Shown here piece by piece: positions 9,208 through 64,000 of a DNA stretch of 64,000 bases. Position 1 is the stretch's first letter; every line of letters starts with the position of its first letter. The stretch comes from an uncultured Bacilli bacterium. Its GTDB lineage: Bacteria > Bacillota_I > Bacilli_A > RF39 > UBA660. The position numbers and the translations under genes were made by a program. The notes below the pieces were generated by a model that searched no databases, was not told the DNA's origin, and saw nothing but the letters and a program-made list of their open reading frames with translations. The stretch covers positions 32,928-96,927 of the forward strand of contig CAKOZD010000001.1 in the NCBI GenBank assembly GCA_934131175.1, given 5' to 3'.

Positions 9208-9516
9208 CTATTTCTCTGGAATTTGCAAAATATATTCTCCATCTTTAGAATATGAATATTTTTCCCTTGCGTATCTAGCTACATAATCTGGATTTTGTAA
9301 TTTTTTAGCATCAACTTGTAATTCTTCTTCTTTTTCTTTTAAACTAGTAAGTTGCTTATCAAGATCTTTTTTTTCTTGATACTTATCAAAAATTTCAACC
9401 CAGTATCTACCAATAGAGAATGTAACACCAAATATAACTACAAGAGATAGAATAGCTAAAATAAAAGTTCTACGCTTTCTCTTATTAACTTTTTTTACTT
9501 TTGCCATCACATTCAC
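9208..9516 (-). CDS. divIC: Septum formation initiator, DivIC/FtsB family
   Basis: 102 aa. N-terminal TM then coiled coil (LTSLKEKEEELQVDAKKLQNPDY). Position is syntenic with B. subtilis divIC after yabQ. Confidence 0.6.
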   Translation of the reverse strand: MNVMAKVKKVNKRKRRTFILAILSLVVIFGVTFSIGRYWVEIFDKYQEKKDLDKQLTSLKEKEEELQVDAKKLQNPDYVARYAREKYSYSKDGEYILQIPEK

Positions 9517-10592: not shown

Positions 10593-10805
10593 TTAACCAA
10601 CTATTTTCAAGTTATTTATAAGTAAATCGCTATAAGTAAAAGACAAAGTCCTACCATCACAAGTACTTATAGTGAATATTGCAGGATATGCTTTATCAAT
10701 AAATCCTTCAAAAATTTCATTTTGATTTCTAGGTCCCTTATAAAAGAATTTCCTTTTTATACCAATATTTTTATAAACAATATTTTTTGCAATATTAATA
10801 TTCAT
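10593..10805 (-). CDS. veg: Veg-like small protein
   Basis: 70 aa. GIKRKFFYKGPRNQNEIFEGFIDKAYPAIFTI...SFTYSDL aligns with B. subtilis Veg (GKRLTLKANGGRRK..ETYPSVFVIQ...SYSYADI). Syntenic position next to yabG. Confidence 0.6.
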   Translation of the reverse strand: MNINIAKNIVYKNIGIKRKFFYKGPRNQNEIFEGFIDKAYPAIFTISTCDGRTLSFTYSDLLINNLKIVG

Positions 10806-11581
10806 CGTGGATACCCCACATACATAGTACCATTAGTAATTATTCCTCCAATACCATCACTACCATATTTTGTTTTCTTAATCATATTAATTAAATCAAT
10901 ACTTTGATTTTTATCAGATAAAGCAACACTTGATGCTATTATTGCAGGATCTAGAGCATGAATATTTATCCTTTTAGGACTCGATGCAAAATTAGCACCT
11001 GCTTGAATTAGTTTTTCGTAATTAGACTGACAAGCACCAGCTATTATAATTAACTTATCTTGACTCTTTTCATATTTTCTTGCCTCTTTAATAGCCGAAA
11101 TAAAATTAGATGAATTTTCATAATTATTTAAATCATTTTCATCGTGTTTTTTTGAAAAATAAGCATCATGACCAGTAACAACAACAATATCCGGTCTATA
11201 TTCTTTTATAAGATTAACAATTTTAGAGGAAACACTTTTTTCAGGCAAAGTAATTCCATTCGCCTTAATACCCATATTTTTATAAAATTTCATACATCTA
11301 TTCAAATAATCATTATCTCCATCAATATGTAATATTTTTCCAGGTATATAAAAATAATTATCTCTATCCATATGAATTAAAGATAAATTTCTCTTTATTA
11401 TAGAATCATCATCATTTAAAACATCATTAACTATAGTAAGATCATCTATATCAGCATCAGCATATAAACGTAAATCAACGCCTTTTAAAAAAACATTTTG
11501 TTGATCTATACTAATAATTTTAAAAACGATGTCATGATTATGAGAAATACGACTTACTAAATCACCCACTTTGAATTTCAA
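10802..11581 (-). CDS. yabG: Sporulation-specific protease YabG-like
   Basis: 259 aa. N-terminal MKFKVGDLV...FKII and overall pattern match YabG. Position is syntenic between ksgA and veg. Confidence 0.6.
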   Translation of the reverse strand: MKFKVGDLVSRISHNHDIVFKIISIDQQNVFLKGVDLRLYADADIDDLTIVNDVLNDDDSIIKRNLSLIHMDRDNYFYIPGKILHIDGDNDYLNRCMKFYKNMGIKANGITLPEKSVSSKIVNLIKEYRPDIVVVTGHDAYFSKKHDENDLNNYENSSNFISAIKEARKYEKSQDKLIIIAGACQSNYEKLIQAGANFASSPKRINIHALDPAIIASSVALSDKNQSIDLINMIKKTKYGSDGIGGIITNGTMYVGYPR

Positions 11582-12497: not shown

Positions 12498-13106
12498 TTA
12501 AGACTCTCTTCTCTTTGACATAACAACAGTAATTTTAATAGCATCATATAAAATAACTATTCCTATAGGAATTAAAAAACAATATAAGAAATTAGAAGGT
12601 TTTGATAAAAATGAATGTACATAACCTATTTTTGGAATAACAAATAAAACCTTTCCATAAATCTGATCAGTTGCAACAGAAGCATAATCAGCAACTGGAT
12701 TATTATCACCTTTTGTAGTATAAATCGAACTATCCTTATTAACGTTTTCTTTATTGATAATTCTATGAGTTACTGTTAATCCTTTATAATATGTATCGCT
12801 AGATGAAAAACTTATAATATCTCCAACTTTATATTTATCATGATCAACTCTTTTTACAATAATAGCATCATTAATATTTATTGTTGGAACCATACTTTGT
12901 GAAACAATAACATAACCATTAAATAAAGGACTTTTATAATTTGGGTTATTAGAATTAATCAAAATATCTCCAAAATAAAGACAAAAAACAAAACCAATCA
13001 CAACTATAAAGCACAAAATTGCCAACAAAAACGCTCTTACAATAAAATGTGATAAGTACTTAATTTTATCAAAAGGGTTTTCTAATCTACCTTCCATCTT
13101 TATCAA
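12498..13106 (-). CDS. sipW: Signal peptidase I, SipW-like (archaeal/ER-type S26)
   Basis: 202 aa. N-terminal TM, catalytic Ser in VSQSMVP, His in TVTHRII, and GDNN motif typical of SipW-type peptidases. Confidence 0.65.
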   Translation of the reverse strand: MIKMEGRLENPFDKIKYLSHFIVRAFLLAILCFIVVIGFVFCLYFGDILINSNNPNYKSPLFNGYVIVSQSMVPTININDAIIVKRVDHDKYKVGDIISFSSSDTYYKGLTVTHRIINKENVNKDSSIYTTKGDNNPVADYASVATDQIYGKVLFVIPKIGYVHSFLSKPSNFLYCFLIPIGIVILYDAIKITVVMSKRRES

Positions 13107-13191
13107 CTTCTCCTATCATATTTTTATTATAATACTCAAAAAATCAAAAAACTATAAATAAAAATAAAAAGAAGTCAACTTTACACTTCTT

Positions 13192-13794
13192 TTATTTAGC
13201 TTTTCCATTAATATCAACTTCTACAGAATAAGTACCATTTTGAACTAAACTAGTATCAGCAAGCCAAATTCTTAATCTATAATTATCAGTACCTGACTTA
13301 ACTTTCTTTGTTTTAGTAAGTACCATACTATCTTTTTCACTTCCTAATACAGTTTTCTTCTTCAATCCATCAAATTTTGTAGGACCAAATACTTTAGAAT
13401 AAGTTCCATCACTTTCTTTTTCTAAATAAACTCTTATATCACTATCTGGAATAGTACTTTTACTTTTATCTCTTTTTATAGAAACTTCATATTCAACATA
13501 CTTAGCTTCATCTAGATTAACATCTACAGAAAAATCAAAATATGAACCTTCTGTATTATCTTTTATTCCTATTAAATCAGAAGTTGGAATAGCATTCGAT
13601 ATACTTAGACCATCTATATTATCAGAATAGTTAAGTAAAATATTTCCTCCTTCTTTTTTCTCAACAACAACTTCTTGCTTCTTATTACTAACAAGAGCTA
13701 TACCAACAGCAAGAACTATTATAAATATAGAACACACACATATAAAAACTATCCAAAAATTCTTTGATAATTTTTCTTTTTTTGAACTAGCCAT
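13192..13794 (-). CDS. Secreted/membrane-anchored hypothetical protein B, paralog of the adjacent gene
   Basis: 200 aa. N-terminal basic stretch plus hydrophobic signal/anchor. C-terminal motif RLRIWLAD is shared with the upstream paralog (KLRAWVSD). Probably a SipW substrate. Confidence 0.5.
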   Translation of the reverse strand: MASSKKEKLSKNFWIVFICVCSIFIIVLAVGIALVSNKKQEVVVEKKEGGNILLNYSDNIDGLSISNAIPTSDLIGIKDNTEGSYFDFSVDVNLDEAKYVEYEVSIKRDKSKSTIPDSDIRVYLEKESDGTYSKVFGPTKFDGLKKKTVLGSEKDSMVLTKTKKVKSGTDNYRLRIWLADTSLVQNGTYSVEVDINGKAK

Positions 13795-13802
13795 ATTTCC
13801 TC

Positions 13803-14396
13803 CTAAATACTCCTTACATATATATCAAAAGATATACACTTATTATCATTACCTAATGAATACAAATCAGATACCCAAGCTCTTAATTTAAACTTCATAC
13901 TACTATTAGACTTAATAATACCAGAATATAGAAGTTTAGAATCAGGTAAATCATCTATAACAGCTAAAGATGAATATGTAGGTAACTTATTATTAGTAAA
14001 TCCATTCAAAGCATTATCATTAGAATCAGTTAAATATAAATTTACAAATTCATTTCCAATTTCATTCTTCCCAGAACATTTAGAATTTTTCTTTAAGTAT
14101 ATTTGATAATTTATATCAGTAGAATATTCATTTTTATAAGTAAACTCTTTTAATACTTGCTTTGCATCATCAGCGTCTCCTCTATATACTTTACCCAAAG
14201 CATCAGAAACAGGAAAACTACTATTTAAATAAACATTATTTGTCTCAACATAATTTTCTTCTAAAACATATGCTCTCTTTAAATTATTTCTATTACTAGT
14301 ATAAAAATATCCAAGTAACATAAAAAAGACAAATAAGAATACAATTACAATAAGTGCCAGCATAACTTGTTTTTTATCTTTAACATTCATATCCAC
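13803..14396 (-). CDS. Secreted/membrane-anchored hypothetical protein A, paralog of the adjacent gene
   Basis: 197 aa. N-terminal signal/anchor. Shares LN-S block and C-terminal K-LR-W--D motif with protein B. Confidence 0.5.
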   Translation of the reverse strand: MDMNVKDKKQVMLALIVIVFLFVFFMLLGYFYTSNRNNLKRAYVLEENYVETNNVYLNSSFPVSDALGKVYRGDADDAKQVLKEFTYKNEYSTDINYQIYLKKNSKCSGKNEIGNEFVNLYLTDSNDNALNGFTNNKLPTYSSLAVIDDLPDSKLLYSGIIKSNSSMKFKLRAWVSDLYSLGNDNKCISFDIYVRSI

Positions 14397-16789: not shown

Positions 16790-17010
16790 CCTCCAAAAAA
16801 AAATTACTATAAACATAAGGACGAACAATATCGCGGTACCACCTTATTTTATAATAATTAATATTATACACTTATATAGTTAACGCCTATCTACGTCTAT
16901 ACCTACATATCGATATAGAAGTTCAGAAGCCATACTTTTATAAAAAAATTATACTCATTTTCACCAACAGAGTTCTCTAAAATAATTTTTCTTATAAAGC
17001 TCTTCATCAA
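16790..17010 (-). promoter_or_regulatory. T-box riboswitch leader of metG (Met specifier)
   Basis: Minus strand contains the hallmark T-box sequence AAGGUGGUACCGCG (revcomp of ~16829-16846), followed by a U10 run before the metG RBS. Upstream are stem I elements: a GA/K-turn-like UGAUGAAGAGC, an AGAGA box, a candidate specifier region containing AUG-G, and an F-box-like GCGUUA. Confidence 0.6.
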
Positions 17011-17060
17011 AACATTTAAAATATGAGAATAATATAACATAAATATATTAAATTAACAAG

Positions 17061-17729
17061 TTAATCATCTAAATTATCATTTAATAATCTAGAATTATTT
17101 AAAGTAAATAAATATCTTTCAGCTTGCTCCTTAGCACTATTCATCAAAGTTGTATCTTTCACTAATATCTTAATATCAACATTTTCAAGTAACTGATTTT
17201 TATATGTACTCTTAATCCACTTAGAAATATCAGTAGTAATTTTAGCCTTTTTAACATCATCAGCATCGTCCATGAATATGCAATTTATCTTTTTTAAAAT
17301 ATATTTATCAAGTCCCATAGCTAACTGATCTTTAATAATTTTTTTTATTTGTTTATTTATATTACTAAAATCCTTTTTATTAATTTTAATAACATCACTA
17401 TTTTTAACAAATTCTGTACTTTCAACCTTACTAGATAATTCAGATACTCTAATAGTTTTTATTTCATTACAACATTTCATAATATATTTTCTATAATTAT
17501 CAAGAATTTTCTTTAATTCATCAGTATTTAGAATTATTTTGTTTTTCTTTGCTAAATCAAGAAATTTGGCCTTAATTAAATCCATAGAATCTAATGGAGG
17601 TGTCTTTAATAATGATTTAATATCTTCATCAACTAAAACATTAGTATTATTTTTGATATTCTCTAATATTGCTTTTCTATAATTATCAATATGTTGAGTC
17701 TTTATTTTTTCAAGTTCTTCTTCACTCAT
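17061..17729 (-). CDS. Hypothetical coiled-coil protein
   Basis: 222 aa K/E/N-rich ORF between mfd and the metG leader. No recognisable family. Confidence 0.45.
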   Translation of the reverse strand: MSEEELEKIKTQHIDNYRKAILENIKNNTNVLVDEDIKSLLKTPPLDSMDLIKAKFLDLAKKNKIILNTDELKKILDNYRKYIMKCCNEIKTIRVSELSSKVESTEFVKNSDVIKINKKDFSNINKQIKKIIKDQLAMGLDKYILKKINCIFMDDADDVKKAKITTDISKWIKSTYKNQLLENVDIKILVKDTTLMNSAKEQAERYLFTLNNSRLLNDNLDD

Positions 17730-28286: not shown

Positions 28287-28296
28287 TTAATTCCTC

Positions 28297-28386
28297 CAAA
28301 ATAAAAAGTGCACATGAAAGGAGGATCTTAAGGCTGCTATTTTCCAATCCTGACCTGTTTCAATCACTTTCATTGCACGAATACAT
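28297..28386 (-). ncRNA. ffs: Signal recognition particle RNA (small 4.5S-type)
   Basis: Minus strand reads ...GUGCAAUGAAAGUGAUUGAAACAGGUCAGGAUUGGAAAAUAGCAGCCUUAAGAUCCUCCUUUCAUGUGCAC. It contains the universally conserved domain IV elements CAGGUCAGG, a GGAA tetraloop and AGCAGCC. 5' and 3' ends pair (GUGCAAUGAAAG / CUUUCAUGUGCAC). It overlaps the listed 60-aa ORF 28287..28469, which is therefore spurious. Confidence 0.78.
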
Positions 28387-28642
28387 TGTATTATAAACTT
28401 AATAAAAAGTAAATGTTTTTTTTCTTTTTTTATAAGATAGCTGTAAAAATCTGTTATATTTCTGAACATTTTAAGTTAATTTAAAATTTTTATCTCTATA
28501 TATAACAAAAACTGTGATTTTTTTATTTTGCAATTTTTAGGTGTTAAAAGTCTTTGCATTTTTATACTTTTTGTGTTGATATTTACTTTCAATCTTCTTT
28601 ATAATCACATAATATATTAGAATATTAACTTTTGCTGTGGAA

Positions 28643-28662
28643 AATGTTTCACGTGAAACATT
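28643..28662. promoter_or_regulatory. parS: parS site 1 (perfect 16-bp TGTTTCACGTGAAACA within a 20-bp palindrome); preceded by DnaA-box-like TGTGGAAAA (28636..28644)
   Basis: aatgtttcacgtgaaacatt is a perfect palindrome matching the ParB/Spo0J parS consensus TGTTNCACGTGAAACA. Confidence 0.72.
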
Positions 28663-28821
28663 AAAAAATTAAATTTAATTAATACATAGTGCATATATTT
28701 GAATTAATAGTTTTGAAATAAATAAAAACAAAGAAAAGCGCTTATATTATACTCGAAAAAAGTTAATTAAACTTTTATATTTAATAAACATTAGTAACTT
28801 ATAAACTTAACCTGTGAATAG

Positions 28822-28841
28822 AATGTTTCACGTGAAACATT
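28822..28841. promoter_or_regulatory. parS: parS site 2 (perfect TGTTTCACGTGAAACA); preceded by DnaA-box-like TGTGAATAG (28813..28821)
   Basis: Identical 20-bp palindrome to site 1. Confidence 0.72.
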
Positions 28842-28948
28842 GAAAGTTGAAAAAAAAAACACATCTTAACATTAATAAAATATCTACTATATTAATAAAG
28901 ATTTATATAATTTAATCTATCATTTATAAACTTTTATTGTGGAAAAAA

Positions 28949-28964
28949 GTTTCACGTGAAACTA
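28949..28964. promoter_or_regulatory. parS: parS site 3 (variant AGTTTCACGTGAAACT, 14/16 to consensus, still palindromic); preceded by TGTGGAAAA (28938..28946)
   Basis: 16-bp perfect palindrome agtttcacgtgaaact with the same 5' flank architecture as sites 1 and 2. Confidence 0.55.
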
Positions 28965-28996
28965 TTACAATATTTAACTTTTTCTGTGAATAAAAT

Positions 28997-29010
28997 ATTT
29001 CCTGGGAAAT
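28997..29010. promoter_or_regulatory. Noc-binding-site-like palindrome ATTTCCTGGGAAAT (13/14 to NBS consensus); preceded by TGTGAATAA (28985..28993)
   Basis: Matches the NBS consensus ATTTCCCGGGAAAT except for C7T. Same flank unit as the parS copies. Confidence 0.45.
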
Positions 29011-29174
29011 AATTTTAAAATTTACATATTTTTACAAATAAATAACTAAATTTTATTAAATAAATGAATAAAAATTAAAAAATGCATTCTCGTAAATTTA
29101 GATTATATATTATTCATCTATTAATTCTTAAATTTATTAGAATGCATTTTGCAAATTGTTAATATTTCCCAAAT

Positions 29175-29190
29175 TATTTCCCGGGAAATA
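29175..29190. promoter_or_regulatory. Noc-binding site (perfect 16-mer TATTTCCCGGGAAATA inside a 24-bp palindrome, 29171..29194), with an extra half-site ATATTTCCC at 29163..29170
   Basis: Perfect match to the published B. subtilis NBS consensus. Lies 25 nt downstream of the gyrA stop. Confidence 0.6.
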
Positions 29191-29217
29191 ATTTTAATTG
29201 TTGAAAAAAAGAAGAGA

Positions 29218-38173: not shown

Positions 38174-38583
38174 ACCTATTCTACATTAAAATAATTAAAA
38201 ATGAAAGTAAAAAAACATAAAAAAAACAAATTAATTTTGTAGATTAAATTTGATGTGTCGATATATACAATAACATATTTTTTCATTTTATTAAATAAAA
38301 AAATAATTAAATTTTTTTTAGTACAAAATTAGGGTACTTTTCAACATAATTTTACACTTCAAAAAAATCAAAAAAATAGCATTCGACATTTTCCACCAAT
38401 ATTCCACAAAGTTTTCAACAATTGAAGTGTATATATAATAAGGATAAAAATAAGTTTTCCACATTTTCCACAGAAAAGTTATTAATAGGGTATAAAAAAG
38501 TTTTAAACAAACTTGTGGAAATTGTTAATAACTAAAAAAATAATTAAAATAAATTAAAAAAAGAATAAATTAACAACTTTTAT
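38174..38583. promoter_or_regulatory. oriC: oriC part 1: DnaA-box cluster plus AT-rich unwinding region upstream of dnaA
   Basis: Box-like 9-mers are at 38389..38397 (TTTTCCACC), 38400..38408, 38455..38463 and 38464..38472 (tandem TTTTCCACA x2), and 38514..38522 (TGTGGAAAT). An extremely AT-rich stretch at 38200-38340 is the candidate DNA-unwinding element. Confidence 0.7.
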
Positions 38584-44674: not shown

Positions 44675-44772
44675 AAAAACTATTGAAAGAAAAATTAAAA
44701 TAAACTATAATGATAATATAGGGAAAATAAAAGTAAATAAATGAAAAATGATAATAGAAAGGGGAATGACTC

Positions 44773-46053
44773 ATGTTTAATACAGAAAAAGATGAGGTTG
44801 TACAACTATATTTAGACGATATTATTCCAAATAGATTTCAACCTAGAGAAATATTTGATGAAAGAGCATTAAAAGAGTTAGCGGTTTCTATAAGAGAACA
44901 TGGTGTTATTCAACCAATAATTGTAAGAAGTGTTGCAAACGGAAAATACGAGATAATAGCAGGAGAAAGAAGATACAAAGCATCAGCATTAGCTGGATTA
45001 ACAAAAATTCCTGCAATAATAAGAAATTTAGATGATAAAGAAAGTTCAAAAGTCGCATTATTAGAAAATTTACAAAGAAAAAATTTAAACCCAATAGAAG
45101 AGGCTAGAACATATCAAAAGATTCTTGAAATTGATCAAATGACACAAGAAGAATTAGCAAAAACAATGGGTAAGAGTCAATCTGCAGTAGCAAATAAATT
45201 AAGATTACTTTCATTACCAGATGCTATACAAAATGCTCTTTTAAAAGAACAAATTTCTGAAAGACATGCAAGAGCACTTATAAATGTACCAGATACAAAG
45301 AAACAAAAAGATTTATTAAAAAAGATAATTGACAACAAAATGAGTGTACGTGCAGTAGAAGAAGAAATTAAAAAATTGTATCCAAAAGATACAAAGAGTG
45401 GAAATGATGTTCCATTGATGCCACAGGACCAAGTTGCTTCAGCATCAGCTTTTGTTAATAGTAATCCTTTAATACCAACTGCAGAGTTACCACAAGATGA
45501 ATCAAATTTCGGAAAGGTTACTATTGCACCACCAGAAGGAGAGGAGATGCCTACGGGTAAATTTATAAATTATGGAGAAATAGGAAAAGAAAAAGATGAA
45601 GAGCCAACTATACCAAATATTCCAAATTCAGTTACATCAATAGATGTTAATACCTTAAGAAATAATACTAACGATATTAATTCTGGAAATAATGGTTCAT
45701 CATTAGATAATTTATTAAATATTGGAGGACAATCAAGTTTTATAACTCCAGCAGAAAAAATAGTTAAAACAGATACATTTGATAAAGAAAATAAATCAAA
45801 AGACTATTTCAGTACAGCAGATTTATCAGCATTAAATATTCCACAAGAAACATCTAATATCGTTCCAATTAACAATGGTATGATTCCAACTTCAAACGTT
45901 GCTGAAGAAAATTATACAATAGAAGAAGCAACAGAAAAGATTAGAGAATTAGTAAATGATTTAAAAGAACATGGTGTTAATATAAATACTGATGAAATGA
46001 ACTTTGAAAAGTCTTATCAAATTATCATAAAATTATATAAAGACAATAAATAA
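44773..46053 (+). CDS. noc: ParB-family nucleoid occlusion protein Noc-like, with a ~215-aa low-complexity C-terminal extension
   Basis: ParB N-domain (IPNRFQPRE, IAGERR) and HTH. The recognition helix GKSQSAVANKLRLL carries the Noc-type specificity residues (Gln and Lys where Spo0J has Arg and His/Met), matching B. subtilis Noc GKGQSTIANKLRLL. The gidB-noc-soj-spo0J gene order matches Bacillus. Confidence 0.7.
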   Translation: MFNTEKDEVVQLYLDDIIPNRFQPREIFDERALKELAVSIREHGVIQPIIVRSVANGKYEIIAGERRYKASALAGLTKIPAIIRNLDDKESSKVALLENLQRKNLNPIEEARTYQKILEIDQMTQEELAKTMGKSQSAVANKLRLLSLPDAIQNALLKEQISERHARALINVPDTKKQKDLLKKIIDNKMSVRAVEEEIKKLYPKDTKSGNDVPLMPQDQVASASAFVNSNPLIPTAELPQDESNFGKVTIAPPEGEEMPTGKFINYGEIGKEKDEEPTIPNIPNSVTSIDVNTLRNNTNDINSGNNGSSLDNLLNIGGQSSFITPAEKIVKTDTFDKENKSKDYFSTADLSALNIPQETSNIVPINNGMIPTSNVAEENYTIEEATEKIRELVNDLKEHGVNINTDEMNFEKSYQIIIKLYKDNK

Positions 46054-46149: not shown

Positions 46150-46947
46150 ATGGGAAAGGTTATATCGTTAGTTAATCAAAAAGGTGGAGTAGGAAAAACT
46201 ACCACAAGTATTAATCTTTCTGCATCATTAGCAGTATTAGGGAAAAGAGTTTTGTTAATAGATTTAGACCCTCAAGGAAATACAACTACTGGTGTAGGAA
46301 TAAATAAAGGAGAAATAGAAAAAAGTATATATGATGTTTTAATTGGAGAGTGTAATGCAACAGAAGCTATGATTAAAACAAAATACAAAGGATTATATGT
46401 TCTACCAGCAACAATAAATTTAGCAGGAATTGATGCTGAATTATTAGAAAAAAGTAGAACACAAAATGGATTTAAAAAAGGTGAACAATTAAAAAATAGT
46501 TTAGCAGACCTAAAGGATAGTTTTGACTATATTATAATAGATTGTCCACCATCTCTAGGTGTAATTACAACCAATGCGTTAACAGCATCAAACTCAGTAA
46601 TCATCCCCGTACAATGTGAATTCTTTGCATTAGAGGGAATTACTCAGTTATTAAAAACAATAATGTTGGCTCAAAAAGGATTAAATCCAACATTAGATAT
46701 AGAAGGGGTACTATTGACTATGTTAGATTCAAGAACAAATCTTGGGTTTGAAGTTGTAGAAGATATAAGAAGATTCTTTAAGGAAAAAGTATATAATACA
46801 ATAATACCAAGACTTGTAAGATTAACAGAAGCTCCATCTCATGGAGAACCAATAGTAGCATATGACCCAAAAAGTAGAGGGTCAGAAGCCTATATCAATC
46901 TAGCAAAGGAAGTGATTGAAAGAAATGAAGGAAATGGAAATAAATAA
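46150..46947 (+). CDS. soj: Chromosome partitioning ATPase ParA/Soj
   Basis: Deviant Walker A KGGVGKTT. 265 aa. Confidence 0.93.
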   Translation: MGKVISLVNQKGGVGKTTTSINLSASLAVLGKRVLLIDLDPQGNTTTGVGINKGEIEKSIYDVLIGECNATEAMIKTKYKGLYVLPATINLAGIDAELLEKSRTQNGFKKGEQLKNSLADLKDSFDYIIIDCPPSLGVITTNALTASNSVIIPVQCEFFALEGITQLLKTIMLAQKGLNPTLDIEGVLLTMLDSRTNLGFEVVEDIRRFFKEKVYNTIIPRLVRLTEAPSHGEPIVAYDPKSRGSEAYINLAKEVIERNEGNGNK

Positions 46948-47857
46948 TATTCATGAAAATGAACACGAAGGAGAAATACCTAAAAGAAGAGCGTTAGGAA
47001 GAGGTTTGGAAGAATTATTTAGTAGTGAAGTACTTGATTATAGTTCAGTTGAAAAACAAATTGTAGAAGAAACATCAAAAGATGAAATAGTAAACATAAA
47101 ATTAAGTGAACTTAGAAGTAATCCATATCAGCCAAGAAAAATTTTTGATGAAAAAGCTTTGGAAGAACTTGCTAATTCAATTAAAGAACATGGCGTTTTC
47201 CAACCAATAATTGTAAAAAAATCAATTAAAGGCTATGAAATAATAGCAGGTGAGCGAAGAGTTAAAGCATCACTTATGGCAGGGTTAACAGAAATTCCAG
47301 CAATTGTTAGAGATTTTAATGATACTCAGATGATGGAGATTGCTTTACTTGAAAACTTACAAAGAGAAAACTTAACAGCTATAGAAGAAGCCAATGCTTA
47401 TAAAAAATTACAAGATACTCTTGGTTTGACACAAGAACAATTAGCAAATAGACTTGGAAAAAGTAGAAGTCATGTAACTAATATGTTAGGTCTTCTAAAT
47501 TTACCAGAAACAATCCAAAGTGATATAAATGATAAAAAAATCACTATGGGACATGCAAGAGTTCTAAGTAAATTACAAGATAAAGTACAACAAGCAGAAT
47601 TAGAAGAAAAAGTAATTTCAGAAGGAATGAGTGTTAGAGAATTAGAAGAATTAACACAAGCTCCAAAAATAATAAAAACAAACCCACAGAAACCAAAAAT
47701 AAGAGAAAATAATGAATATAGTTACTTACAAGAGGAGTTAAGTGAAAAATTAGGAACAAAAGTTATAGTTAAGAAAAATAAATTAGAAATAAGTTTTGTT
47801 AATGGAAATGATTTAAATAGACTATTAGAATTAATGCATATAGAGGTTGGAAAGTAA
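46916..47857 (+). CDS. spo0J: Chromosome partitioning protein ParB/Spo0J
   Basis: RALGRGLEELF, NPYQPRK and GERR motifs. The recognition helix GKSRSHVTNMLGLL has Spo0J-type specificity residues (Arg retained). Confidence 0.92.
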   Translation: MKEMKEMEINNIHENEHEGEIPKRRALGRGLEELFSSEVLDYSSVEKQIVEETSKDEIVNIKLSELRSNPYQPRKIFDEKALEELANSIKEHGVFQPIIVKKSIKGYEIIAGERRVKASLMAGLTEIPAIVRDFNDTQMMEIALLENLQRENLTAIEEANAYKKLQDTLGLTQEQLANRLGKSRSHVTNMLGLLNLPETIQSDINDKKITMGHARVLSKLQDKVQQAELEEKVISEGMSVRELEELTQAPKIIKTNPQKPKIRENNEYSYLQEELSEKLGTKVIVKKNKLEISFVNGNDLNRLLELMHIEVGK

Positions 47858-59938: not shown

Positions 59939-60829
59939 ATGTATATGGATAATAAAAAATTAGAAGTAGTAAAAACAAGAGCTGGTTTCATAGCAGCACT
60001 AGACCAATCAGGAGGAAGTTCTGCAAAAACATTAGAAAAATATGGTATAAAAAAAGATGAGTATCAAACAGAAGAAGAAATGTTTGATTTAATTCATCAA
60101 ATGAGAACAAGAGTAATAACTTCAGCGGTCTTTAACGATAAGCATATTTTAGGAACAATTCTTTTCTATAAAACTATGATGGGAAAAATAGAAGGAGAAT
60201 ATAGTGCAGATTATTTATGGAATAAGAAAAATATAGTTTCATTTTTAAAAGTCGATAAAGGTCTTGAAGAAGAAGTAAACGGCGTTAAATTAATGAAACC
60301 AATTCCAGATTTAGAAAATCAATTAGATGAAGCTAACGAAAAACATGTATTTGGTACCAAAATGCGAAGTGTTATTTATGAAGCAAATGAAAAAGGAATC
60401 GAGGATATTGTTAATCAACAATTTGAATTTGCAAAAGTAATTTGCAATAAAGGATTAGTTCCAATAATTGAACCAGAAGTAGATATTAATTCCAAAGATA
60501 AAGAACAATGTGAAGAAATATTACATGAAAAGATAAAAGAAAAATTAAACAGTTGGGATTCAGAAGATAAAATTATGTTTAAATTTACAATCCCAACTAA
60601 GGAAAACCTTTATGAAGACTTATATAACTATGAAGCAGTTATAAGAGTCGTTGCATTATCAGGTGGATATAATATTGATAAAGCGTGTGAATTATTATCA
60701 AAAAATAATAAAATGATAGCAAGTTTTTCAAGAGCATTACTTGAAAATTTAAATGTTAACCAAACAAAAGAAGAGTTTGATAGAGAATTAGATAATGCAA
60801 TTACAAAAATATATAATGCATCAATCTAA
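59939..60829 (+). CDS. fba: Fructose-bisphosphate aldolase class I
   Basis: GFIAALDQSGGS Schiff-base-class aldolase N-terminus. 296 aa. Confidence 0.8.
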   Translation: MYMDNKKLEVVKTRAGFIAALDQSGGSSAKTLEKYGIKKDEYQTEEEMFDLIHQMRTRVITSAVFNDKHILGTILFYKTMMGKIEGEYSADYLWNKKNIVSFLKVDKGLEEEVNGVKLMKPIPDLENQLDEANEKHVFGTKMRSVIYEANEKGIEDIVNQQFEFAKVICNKGLVPIIEPEVDINSKDKEQCEEILHEKIKEKLNSWDSEDKIMFKFTIPTKENLYEDLYNYEAVIRVVALSGGYNIDKACELLSKNNKMIASFSRALLENLNVNQTKEEFDRELDNAITKIYNASI

Positions 60830-60840
60830 AATTTAGACAC

Positions 60841-60910
60841 AAAAAAAGTAGAGAAATATAATAGATGTGAATTATAATATTTCACAACGAAACATTCTCT
60901 ACTTTTTTAT
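60841..60910. terminator. Bidirectional terminator between fba (+) and pta (-)
   Basis: aaaaaaa-gtagagaa ... ttctctac-tttttt inverted repeat enclosing a nested gtgaa/ttcac hairpin. Confidence 0.5.
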
Positions 60911-61905
60911 TAATTATTTTGTGCTTGTACTGCAGTAATGGCAATTACACCAACTATATCATCAGCAGAGCAACCTCTACTTAAGTCATTAATTGGAGAA
61001 GCAATTCCTTGAGTAATTGGTCCATAAGCTTCAGCCTTAGCAAGTCTTTGAACTAATTTATAACCGATATTACCAGCATCTAAGTCTGGGAATACTAAAA
61101 CATTAGCGTGTCCAGCAACTTCACTATTTGGTGCTTTAGAAGCAGCAACACTAGGTACAATAGCTGCATCTAATTGTAACTCGCCATCGATTTTATAATC
61201 TGGATAAGTTTCTTTAGCTATTTTGCAAGCTTCAACAACCTTATCAACATCTGCATGCTTTGCACTTCCTTTTGTTGAATGAGAAAGCATAGCAACAAGC
61301 GGTTCTTTTTCTACTAACAATTTAAAACTTTCAGCACTACTAGCAGCAATTGCAGCAAGTCTTTCTGGAGTTGGATTTTGCTCAAGACCGGAATCTGCAA
61401 AAACGAAAGTACCATCACTACCATATTCACAATTAGGAACAACCATTAAGAAAAATGCAGAAACAAGCATAACTCCAGGTTTAGTTTTAATAATTTGTAA
61501 TGAAGGTCTTAATGTATTAGCAGTTGAATGACAAGCGCCTGATACAACACCATCAGCACGACCAGTCTTTACTAACATACATGCATAATACATATAATCA
61601 GTTAATAATAATTTTTTAGCATCATCATAAGTAAGACCTTTATTCTTTCTTATTTCAACAAGTCCGTTTATTAATTCTTCAGTAATATCAGCAGTATTAG
61701 GATCAATAATTGTAGCCTTACTAATATCAAAGCCTTTAGAATTCTCATTAATTTCTTCAGGAGTACCAATAATTATAATATCAGCAATATCTTCTTTTAA
61801 AGCCTTATCAGCAGCCTCCATAGTTCTTTTATCCATTGATTCTGGTAGAACAATTCTCTTTTTATCCTTTTTAGCACGTAATTTAATACTATCAATAAAA
61901 TTCAT
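60910..61905 (-). CDS. pta: Phosphate acetyltransferase
   Basis: 331 aa PTA/PTB fold. MNFIDSIKLRAKKDKKRIV...SGACHSTANTLRPSLQI motifs. Confidence 0.85.
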   Translation of the reverse strand: MNFIDSIKLRAKKDKKRIVLPESMDKRTMEAADKALKEDIADIIIIGTPEEINENSKGFDISKATIIDPNTADITEELINGLVEIRKNKGLTYDDAKKLLLTDYMYYACMLVKTGRADGVVSGACHSTANTLRPSLQIIKTKPGVMLVSAFFLMVVPNCEYGSDGTFVFADSGLEQNPTPERLAAIAASSAESFKLLVEKEPLVAMLSHSTKGSAKHADVDKVVEACKIAKETYPDYKIDGELQLDAAIVPSVAASKAPNSEVAGHANVLVFPDLDAGNIGYKLVQRLAKAEAYGPITQGIASPINDLSRGCSADDIVGVIAITAVQAQNN

Positions 61906-61918
61906 AATTTACCTCTTT

Positions 61919-62452
61919 CTATTTATCTTCATTTAATATTTCGTATATTTCCCTTTTTTCATTATTATAAAATTCTTTCTTTTTAAATCTTCTAAAAAAA
62001 GCAATTATATTAGATGGAAAAGACATAATTAATTGATTAAATTCAACAACAGTATCATTATAGAACTTAATTGCTCCAACAATATCCTCTTCATTATCAT
62101 TTAAATCTTCTAAAATAGAAACTAATGATTCACTTTTAAACAACTTCTCATTTTCATCTAAAGTTTTAAATAATTCGTTATAGCATTTCTTTAGAGTATC
62201 GTGTAACGAAAAATTATTAACATCATCAAAAGATTCATCTAGTTCATCTAAAAAACTTTCTAATTTTAGTTCCTTTTTTATTGTAGGTCGACATCTATCA
62301 AGTAGTTCTTTCTTTTTATCTAAGTAAAGACTTATATCCTCTTCAGCTTTATCTATTTTTATAATAGAAAATTGAAATTTATTATTAATAATTATTATCA
62401 TTATTAATAAAATACTTATTAAAACAATCACACCTAAAATAATTTCTAGCAT
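61919..62452 (-). CDS. lemA: LemA-family protein
   Basis: N-terminal TM. LemA motif IKFYNDTVVEFNQLIMSFPSNIIAFFRRFKKKEFY. Confidence 0.7.
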   Translation of the reverse strand: MLEIILGVIVLISILLIMIIIINNKFQFSIIKIDKAEEDISLYLDKKKELLDRCRPTIKKELKLESFLDELDESFDDVNNFSLHDTLKKCYNELFKTLDENEKLFKSESLVSILEDLNDNEEDIVGAIKFYNDTVVEFNQLIMSFPSNIIAFFRRFKKKEFYNNEKREIYEILNEDK

Positions 62453-62514
62453 CTTACACCTCCAACTATCTAGATTATATCACATCACAATAAAAGAGAA
62501 AATAATTTCTCTTT

Positions 62515-64000
62515 TCAATTACTTGTAATTTCATCAAATGTAGTATCTGTTTCTTTAGGCTCAGTTCCTTTTAAAAAATACATCAATTTTTGCTTTTTGT
62601 CACTTTCAGTTGCTGGTTTTCCAGAAATTGGTTCTACAAGCATACCAACAACATTTTTAGGTTTTTCATACCAAACATCTTCATCTTTCATATCTTTCTC
62701 ATAACTTTCTACAGTTTTATACCAAATATTTTGAGCATATTTATAATCCTTTTTAGATAGTTCTTTATTATTATCATATCCAACCCATACAGCACACACA
62801 ATCTTTTTATTAAAACCAATATTCCAATTATCTCCATTAGTAGTACCACTTTTTAAAGCATAGGTATGAGTTAATTTTCCATTAAGTCCAATACCCGTTG
62901 GATAATTATAATCAACATATAATGGATCATAAGTTGCTGTAAGCATATTATTTAGAATATATACAAGTGAAGAATTTAAAACTAGTTCTTTATTTTTTTT
63001 ATATTCATAGAGAACTTCTCCTTTACCATTTTCAATCTTTTCAATAAAATGTCCCTCTACTTTATATCCTTCATTTGCAAAAGCAGCATATCCTTGAGCC
63101 ATTTCAATTATATTTATTTCATTGGTACCTAAAGGAAGAGAAGGAACACTTTCAAGTTTTGATTTAATTCCAACTCTTCTTGCGACATTGATAAGAGCAT
63201 CATATCCTAAAAACATATGTGTTTTAACAGCATATATATTATCACTATAAGCAATAGCAGTAGCCATACTTATAGCTTTATTTCCATATTTATCATTATA
63301 ATTAACTGGTGAATATGTCTTGCCATTCTCTAAAGGAAAAGTTGTCTTTTCACTTGTAAAAGCAGTACTAGAAGTAAAACCATTTTCTAATGCAGCATAA
63401 TATAAATAAGGTTTCATAGTAGATCCTACCTGCCTTTTGGAAGAAATTGCACGATTATAAGTAGAATTATTATAGTCTCTTCCTCCAATAAGTGCCATTA
63501 TACCACCGTTTTCTGGATTCATTACAACACTAGAAGTCTCTATTTTAGAATCATCTGGAAAAGTATTTTTTACATTTTCTTCAAGACTACTTTGAATATC
63601 ATAATTAAAGTTTGTATATATTTTTAACCCATTATAATCACTATAATTTCTTGGAATACTATCAATACTCTCAAGTTCATTCATAACCGCATCAATATAG
63701 TAATTTATACTGGTTAAATTTTCTTTATCAGAATTTGCTGTAATAGTAAGTTCTTCACTATAAGCTTTATCTTTCTCACTTGATGAAATAATTCCGTTAT
63801 TTACTAAAGCATTTAATACAACAAGTTGTCTCTTTTTAGCATTTTCAAAATTTATAATAGGAGAATATATACTAGGAGCCTTTGGAATACCACTAAGCAT
63901 AGAAGCTTCAGCTAAATCTAAATCTTTACTACTTTTATTAAAATAAAACTTAGAAGCATTCTCAATTCCATATTTTCCATGACCATAATTAATAGTATTT
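62515..64000 (-). CDS. Class A penicillin-binding protein (PBP1A-type), N-terminus off-window
   Basis: Transpeptidase motifs STMKP, SDN and KSGTT. Hand translation of 63901..64000 continues the frame into the glycosyltransferase motif (YGHGKYGIENASKFYFNKS...LAEASMLSGIPKAPS), so the listed Met is internal. Confidence 0.88.
   Translation of the reverse strand, partial: NTINYGHGKYGIENASKFYFNKSSKDLDLAEASMLSGIPKAPSIYSPIINFENAKKRQLVVLNALVNNGIISSSEKDKAYSEELTITANSDKENLTSINYYIDAVMNELESIDSIPRNYSDYNGLKIYTNFNYDIQSSLEENVKNTFPDDSKIETSSVVMNPENGGIMALIGGRDYNNSTYNRAISSKRQVGSTMKPYLYYAALENGFTSSTAFTSEKTTFPLENGKTYSPVNYNDKYGNKAISMATAIAYSDNIYAVKTHMFLGYDALINVARRVGIKSKLESVPSLPLGTNEINIIEMAQGYAAFANEGYKVEGHFIEKIENGKGEVLYEYKKNKELVLNSSLVYILNNMLTATYDPLYVDYNYPTGIGLNGKLTHTYALKSGTTNGDNWNIGFNKKIVCAVWVGYDNNKELSKKDYKYAQNIWYKTVESYEKDMKDEDVWYEKPKNVVGMLVEPISGKPATESDKKQKLMYFLKGTEPKETDTTFDEITSN

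Follow-up and report, generated by a model that had tools for sequence, protein, structure and literature searches.

We describe a gene for a 426-aa Noc-type ParB paralogue (hereafter the noc-like gene and protein) in a 64,000-nt stretch of DNA from an uncultured Bacilli bacterium (GenBank assembly GCA_934131175.1, contig CAKOZD010000001.1), a whole stretch that we call the window. Our data suggest that it is very probably a Noc orthologue that recognizes Noc-binding sites (NBS) but has no direct membrane anchor: the membrane-targeting helix at the N-terminus of Bacillus Noc is absent, and a long, acidic, disordered linker separates the DNA-binding domain (DBD) from the C-terminal domain (CTD). 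An earlier reading made from the letters alone (the sequence-only reading) had singled out this protein; we find that the feature is clade-wide and not peculiar to one protein. The explanation that we favor, with moderate confidence and with a mechanism that is itself conjectural, is that an NBS-loaded CTP clamp would act without direct membrane binding, through its linker.

The protein is a ParB paralogue of the Noc type and not a second Spo0J, as the sequence-only reading had also held. Its best sequence match among structures in the PDB is Geobacillus thermoleovorans Noc (227 bits; 56% identity over the N-domain and DBD), followed by Bacillus subtilis Noc (198 bits), with every ParB at 180 bits or below. 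Its AlphaFold2 (AF2) model likewise matches the Noc structures 7nfu and 7ol9 best, and the DBD of the model superposes on the Noc DBD-NBS complex 6y93 with a TM score of 0.89-0.90 and a root-mean-square deviation of 1.8-2.2 Å (Foldseek). Against the NCBIfam profile for Noc, TIGR04285, it scores 288.6 bits, compared with 241 for the adjacent Spo0J. In a neighbor-joining tree built on the N-domain and DBD, the family to which it belongs is sister to canonical Bacillaceae Noc, and both stand apart from the Spo0J proteins of the same genomes. The LG(R/K)GL ParA-binding peptide found at the N-terminus of the neighboring Spo0J (ALGRGLEELF) is absent, and the GERR (aa 64-67, nt 44962-44973) and ENLQR (aa 98-102) motifs are invariant across the family.

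Synteny points the same way. Of 80 related loci, 61 have the order mnmG-rsmG-noc-soj-spo0J-mscS; shorter runs of it are seen in most of the others, and in two loci noc, soj and spo0J are ordered differently. In the window, the plus strand carries yidC-jag-mnmE-mnmG-rsmG, then the noc-like gene, then soj-spo0J, the minus strand near the origin carries dnaA/dnaN/recF/gyrB/gyrA, and the GC skew switches sign near 38 kb, which together place the gene at the classical noc position beside oriC. According to PMC8136486, the ancestral ORI cluster of Firmicutes is inferred to have included a noc gene.

The specificity positions of Noc are Q173, K179, K184 and R201, of which Q173 reads adenine 1 and R201 reads cytosine 6 of the site; a single Lys at 179 or 184 suffices for NBS specificity, and parS-specific variants have an invariable Arg at 173 (Jalal 2020, PMC7383237). 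The sequence-only reading had contrasted the recognition helix GKSQSAVANKLRLL (aa 133-146, nt 45169-45210) with GKSRSHVTNMLGLL in the neighboring Spo0J, correctly, and had credited it with the Gln/Lys specificity residues of Noc. That holds for Q136, K142 and R164, three of the four positions; the fourth, equivalent to Noc K184, is Ser (S147). The pattern Q-K-x-R is found in 141 of 147 family representatives, in 134 of which the third position is N, S, T or A; it is never K or R. Since Q136, K142 and R164 are present and one Lys is enough, these residues as aligned predict NBS binding. A second parS-binding ParB with mis-aligned specificity residues would fit with the membership of the ParB family and with the missing K184, but we consider it highly improbable: Q at 173 and R at 201 fall unambiguously in an ungapped helix alignment to the Noc structures, which leaves the protein without the parS-reading R173 and G201 (and thus without the Arg that is invariable in parS-specific variants, PMC7383237), exact NBS sites are conserved in the clade, and a bona fide Spo0J with the R..G residues and LGRGL is encoded two genes downstream.

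Candidate target sites are indeed present, as had been claimed. We surveyed the 64 kb around oriC and related loci of ±6 kb. The NBS palindrome ATTTCCCGGGAAAT has two matches in the window, one exact at 29176 and one with a single mismatch at 28997, against 0.15 expected, and none of 100 shuffles reached two. The related loci (877 kb) hold eight exact 16-mers against about 2e-4 expected by our own base-composition estimate; seven of the eight are intergenic, and no parS was found in the same 877 kb. These eight sites lie at L056:7284, L069:2994, L070:11393, L077:1566 and 3027, L078:1068, L079:3008 and L080:2328 (locus:position). Every NBS of the clade (10/10, window and related loci) is followed on its 3' side by ATTT, and AAAT is often found on the 5' side, so that the conserved clade site exceeds the 16-bp B. 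subtilis NBS and forms a palindrome of up to 24 bp, AAATTATTTCCCGGGAAATAATTT; this may reflect an AT-rich background or a real extension of the recognition site.

The two window NBS share the gyrA-SRP RNA (signal recognition particle RNA) intergenic region (28390-29217) with three parS, giving five ParB-family sites within 550 bp. At four of the five, the repeat AACTTTTnCTGTG(G/A)A(A/T)AA stands 5-7 nt before the site, and its core (TGTGGAAAA/TGTGAATAA) differs from a DnaA box by one mismatch at three of the four sites and by two at the fourth. The unit of 34 nt that surrounds parS site 2 shares 76% identity with the one that surrounds NBS site 4, from which it appears that parS and NBS lie in duplicated homologous units; these may be an in-situ trace of parS/NBS interconversion. 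This arrangement could also be read as that of an NBS-directed organizer of the chromosome or origin, or of a replication regulator, which would not be a division inhibitor. Both NBS are about 9 kb from dnaA and beside the three parS, four of the five sites are flanked by the DnaA-box-like 9-mers, and there is a precedent in Staphylococcus aureus Noc, which is reported to control DnaA-dependent initiation (PMC5540599). However, the NBS of the related loci have no adjacent DnaA-box-like motif, and as the window is the origin region only, the proximity of its NBS to the origin is uninformative about their genome-wide distribution; we regard a role of this kind as quite unlikely.

What sets the protein apart from Bacillus Noc is in the first place its N-terminus. 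In B. subtilis Noc, deletion of the first 10 residues abolishes membrane binding and function (PMC4331003). The sequence-only reading had the noc-like protein start directly with the ParB N-domain, without an amphipathic helix, and this was borne out: the domain begins at residue 8, with only seven residues before it, and residues 1-8 are coil in the AF2 model. The codons upstream, read directly, are TGA-TAA-TAG-AAA-GGG-GAA-TGA-CTC-ATG, and because of these in-frame stops no longer N-terminus is possible, even under a code in which TGA is read as Trp. We could thus reject an N-terminal extension through an alternative start or TGA=Trp (the MAG, or metagenome-assembled genome, bears the label 'Mollicutes'), given the in-frame TAA and TAG 7-8 codons upstream, the lack of an intervening start codon, and the full length of the other window genes under translation table 11.

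The same comparison extends to the family. In our set of canonical Noc proteins (120 Bacillaceae sequences, 246-298 aa), the N-terminus reads MKHPFSRFFGLGEKE, a strict MKHPFSRFFGLG-type helix pattern is found in 97 of 120, and the median number of residues before PNRFQPR is 39.5. That number is 18 in the window protein, has a median of 16 in the family (145 cluster representatives), and ranges over 14-25 in 76 full-length orthologues from other species-representative genomes; not one of the 147 family members has the helix motif. The lack of the membrane-targeting helix is thus clade-wide. As the N-terminal peptides of ParB (LGRGL) and canonical Noc (FFGLG) are homologous by alignment, this absence is most parsimoniously a secondary loss. 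An LDSLLNL segment in the linker was considered as a peptide resembling ParB LGRGLxALL; it has no Arg or Lys, and we take the likeness to be coincidental.

The second difference is the linker. The sequence-only reading had described a disordered C-terminal tail of 215 aa; the disorder and low complexity are real, but they belong to an internal segment (aa 206-380), and a folded domain (aa 381-426) ends the protein. AF2 predicts folded regions at 9-202 and 383-421, and gives the linker a confidence score (pLDDT) below 50 apart from two short helices (292-298 and 311-315), with disorder predicted for residues 206-377. The terminal domain matches G. thermoleovorans Noc residues 243-280 (32% identity, E=1e-5, BLASTP), and a hidden Markov model (HMM) of the clade CTD detects 119 of 120 canonical Noc proteins as well as 136 of 147 family members; the fold and these matches lead us to conclude that the C-terminal dimerization domain is kept. 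The canonical linker of about 12 aa has a charge of about +5 (KPKPKRK...), in contrast to that of the family, which has a median length of 215 aa, reaches about 545 aa at the longest, and carries a charge that is negative in 99% of members, with a median of -27.

A long, compositionally biased segment could in principle arise from a sequencing or frameshift error fusing a truncated noc to another gene. We found nothing in favor of such an artefact and regard it as refuted, with practically no residual probability. Identical or 97-100% identical 426-aa proteins are found on dozens of independent contigs, hundreds of contigs share the architecture, and the protein of a species at 82% identity is 430 aa long. 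All 76 orthologues are single open reading frames (ORFs) of 355-544 aa, each ending in this C-terminal domain, a homologue of the CTD of canonical Noc. The linker, moreover, is under purifying selection: its dN/dS is 0.17-0.41, compared with 0.05-0.09 for the core, values that are rough because dS is near saturation but that stay below 1 across the linker.

Among close relatives the linker contains conserved islands, N..PL.PTAELP.D.SNYGKVTIAPPEG, KFINYGEI, IDxxxIKxNAxDIN, DLDSLLNL, FITPAExIVKTD and DYFxTPDL, of which IDxxxIKxNAxDIN (aa 288-304, nt 45634-45684) is the most widespread. The six islands span aa 226-256, 260-272, 288-304, 308-318, 322-335 and 343-353. HMMs of these islands, built from the close relatives, detect only 4 to 39 of 147 representatives, so that a universal linker motif was rejected; the motifs are lineage-specific. 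Pfam and NCBIfam scans found no domain in the linker, and growth through tandem DNA repeats was set aside, as Tandem Repeats Finder returned only two trivial low-score arrays. The C-terminal peptide of FtsZ reads DIPxFLRxR, and the third island (SIDVNTLRNN) bears some likeness to it; the family consensus ID..xIKxN, however, has neither the Pro nor the Phe, and we give this idea a low probability.

Taken at face value, the conserved short motifs and the two short predicted helices could hint that the protein is mechanistically a canonical Noc, with NBS-DNA still brought to the membrane by a relocated or cryptic element in the linker or by a membrane-protein adaptor, and the full conservation of the Noc-NBS module would fit with this. 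Such a tether seems unlikely to us. A hydrophobic-moment scan found no cationic amphipathic segment outside the folded domains, in which all of its top-ranking segments lay, the acidic linker (-15 here, -27 in the family median) would disfavor anionic bacterial membranes, and the helix-type motif is missing from the whole set of 147.

Our preferred reading is that of a Noc acting without direct membrane binding, and for it we can present a rough proposal. The noc-like protein would nucleate on NBS and close in a CTP-dependent manner into a sliding clamp, as Bacillus Noc does. The clade has replaced the basic DBD-CTD linker of about 12 aa with a long, hypervariable, acidic and intrinsically disordered one. 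Because there is no cationic amphipathic segment and the sole novel region is polyanionic, the protein would be unable to tether DNA to the membrane by itself, and its output at NBS sites would be delivered by the linker. The short motifs of the linker might serve to recruit a partner, such as a protein of the divisome or of the membrane; alternatively, the linker might act as a polyanionic steric or entropic brush, or spacer, around NBS-loaded clamps. We hold this specific view of the linker as effector only tentatively, at less than even odds. Bolder still, and in our estimate rather doubtful, is the idea that a large clade of gut Bacilli uses the ancient Noc-NBS module independently of the membrane, the linker being the effector either by direct contact of its short linear motifs with a divisome component, in an SlmA-like logic on a ParB scaffold, or as a polyanionic brush or condensate that would sterically exclude division or other machinery from NBS-marked DNA.

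Several points weigh against our reading. The protein does not reach the curated TIGR04285 cut-off of 315 bits, even with the linker excised in silico (300.3 bits; canonical Noc scores 378.9). K184, near-invariant in canonical Noc, is never Lys in the family, which could shift affinity or specificity slightly. The best linker island is seen in 39 of 147 representatives, and no other in more than 14, which does not support a single universal partner-binding motif. Finally, that the protein binds NBS, switches with CTP and does not bind the membrane is in each case a prediction from sequence, for proteins of uncultured hosts.

Compared with the Noc proteins of B. subtilis, G. thermoleovorans and S. 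aureus, the noc-like protein shares the rsmG(gidB)-noc-soj-spo0J position near oriC, a CTP-binding N-domain with GERR and ENLQR, a helix-turn-helix domain with the equivalents of Q173, K179 and R201, a homologous CTD, and an identical 16-bp NBS in the genome. It differs from them in having neither the N-terminal amphipathic helix nor the alpha-2 spacer, in the replacement of K184 by Ser (Asn, Ser, Thr or Ala across the family), in its 175-aa acidic linker (-15) instead of the short basic one (KPKPKRK, about +5), and in falling below the TIGR04285 cut-off. With ParB/Spo0J, its paralogue from the same locus, it shares the three-domain clamp architecture and the CTP motifs; unlike ParB/Spo0J, it has no LG(R/K)GL peptide, carries Q and R, not R and G, at positions 173 and 201, which read bases, possesses a long acidic linker, and has NBS, not parS, as its predicted target.

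For a long flexible linker in a ParB-family clamp, the nearest analogue is KorB of plasmid RK2, in which the DBD and CTD are joined by an unusually long flexible linker of 53 aa (PMC11790492). KorB is likewise a ParB-family clamp, and its output relies on a partner protein rather than on segregation by ParA, but it binds OB operators, keeps an N-terminal peptide that interacts with the ParA protein IncC, is plasmid-borne, and has a linker only about one third as long; its sequence match to the noc-like protein (53.9 bits) is limited to the shared ParB core. A functional analogue only is SlmA of Escherichia coli (PMC8136486), in that the noc-like protein, too, would be bound to specific DNA sites and could affect division with no membrane contact of its own; the fold of SlmA is unrelated (TetR family), and contact of the noc-like protein with FtsZ is not indicated.

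Table 1. Features of the noc-like gene, its product and its surroundings (window coordinates).
Feature	Position	Strand	Evidence
noc-like coding sequence, 426 aa + stop	44773..46053	+	ORF read
ParB N-terminal (CTP-binding) domain, aa 8-101	44794..45075	+	Pfam PF02195 E=1e-36; AF2 pLDDT 65-80
Helix-turn-helix DNA-binding domain, aa 103-202	45079..45378	+	Pfam PF17762; alignment to Noc structures
Disordered acidic linker, aa 206-380, net charge -15, N/S/P/I/T/E-rich	45388..45912	+	AF2, composition
C-terminal dimerization-type domain, aa 381-426, one helix and two strands	45913..46050	+	AF2 pLDDT 71-80
Promoter-like TTGAAA-17-TATAAT 5' of the noc-like gene	44683..44711	+	11/12 consensus matches; consensus match only
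AGGGG ribosome-binding site of the noc-like gene	44760-44764	+	sequence reading
In-frame TGA two codons 5' of the noc-like ATG, after in-frame TAA and TAG	44767..44769	+	sequence reading
Terminator-like hairpin then T-run, directly 3' of the noc-like stop codon	46052..46075	+	
soj (parA)	46150..46947	+	ParA/MinD-type NCBIfam matches; synteny
spo0J (parB), LGRGL ParA-binding peptide, parS-type residues R..M..N..G, short basic linker	46916..47857	+	
Three parS for the neighboring Spo0J (28645-28660 exact; 28824-28839 exact; 28948-28963 with 2 mismatches)	28645..28963		
NBS TATTTCCTGGGAAATA, 1 mismatch to the 16-bp NBS	28996..29011		
Exact 16-bp NBS TATTTCCCGGGAAATA	29175..29190		

The host is an uncultured low-GC gut lineage of the class Bacilli. 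The sequence-only reading had seen a taxonomic surprise in a Noc from an organism with clostridial-style sporulation genes, which did not hold up. In a collection of species-representative genomes, the top match is 'uncultured Mollicutes bacterium UMGS532', a deposit of the same species (100% identity over a 102-aa helix-turn-helix query), with a full-length protein that shows a few residue differences from that of the window. The other 79 best loci are from gut MAGs, mostly labeled Bacilli, Bacillales, Erysipelotrichaceae, Tenericutes, Clostridium sp. CAG:451/417/710 or Candidatus Onthousia, the last of which is placed in class Bacilli in the NCBI taxonomy. The rest of the window reads tadA-dnaX-recR-holB ... 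pth-mfd ... metG-tatD ... ksgA-yabG ... divIC-tilS-ftsH ... dusB-lysS, which we take to be a Bacillus-like, ori-proximal order. The Bacilli-class relatives and this order led us to reject a clostridial host, and yabG is the sole sporulation-specific gene recognized in the window. YabG, a sporulation peptidase (10802-11581, minus strand), scores 296 bits against a curated cut-off of 270, and a gene for the septum-formation protein DivIC is found at 9208-9516 (minus strand); from these two we take it as probable that the host, though deposited as 'Mollicutes', divides with a wall-based divisome and retains at least some remnants of sporulation.

Some further features of the window were noted. 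Two abutting TTTTCCACA DnaA-box-like 9-mers lie at 38455-38472 (plus strand) in the dnaA-rpmH intergenic region, at the GC-skew switch, and are consistent with oriC. Some 22 kb rightward of the origin (60000-64000), where genes turn to the minus strand (60910-63900), the skew is once more negative; this second turn could come from the local strand of the genes or from a recent inversion. A small SRP RNA gene is found at 28295-28389 (minus strand, 55 bits), and a T-box leader 5' of metG at 16814-17019 (minus strand, 106 bits). Amid fully recognizable housekeeping genes, four ORFs of 197-222 aa on the minus strand (12498-14396 and 17061-17729) have no profile match in Pfam, nor, for the one at 13192-13794, in NCBIfam.

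The clade to which the noc-like protein belongs is a large one, with at least 145 clusters at 50% identity and, among species-representative genomes, the 76 full-length orthologues. Nearly all of the best 150 of the 50%-identity cluster representatives are 335-800 aa long and start directly at the ParB N-domain; the absence of the helix, the long negatively charged linker and the conserved CTD are traits common to the clade. Those members that are named in their sources are called 'ParB/RepB/Spo0J family partition protein' or 'ParB family chromosome partitioning protein', generic names that they carry because they score below the TIGR04285 cut-off, and Noc is therefore under-called in MAGs of gut Bacilli. 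The literature that we searched, the coverage of which is incomplete, held no description of Noc proteins without the helix and with a long linker, an absence of evidence only; we present them as an undescribed variant of Noc.

In the current model, Noc nucleates at NBS, spreads in a CTP-dependent manner, releases its amphipathic helix, and forms membrane-anchored nucleoprotein complexes that exclude the divisome; its basis is a helix that B. subtilis Noc cannot do without. A sister clade that keeps the DNA-recognition half and the NBS sites without the helix offers a natural experiment on which parts of Noc serve which function. Being in effect a natural Noc without its membrane-targeting sequence and with an intrinsically disordered region added ('NocΔMTS plus IDR'), the clade makes it testable whether membrane tethering is needed for nucleoid occlusion or for another NBS-directed function. 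If the bolder idea of a membrane-independent module is true, the membrane tethering of Bacillus Noc would be one of at least two solutions within the family.

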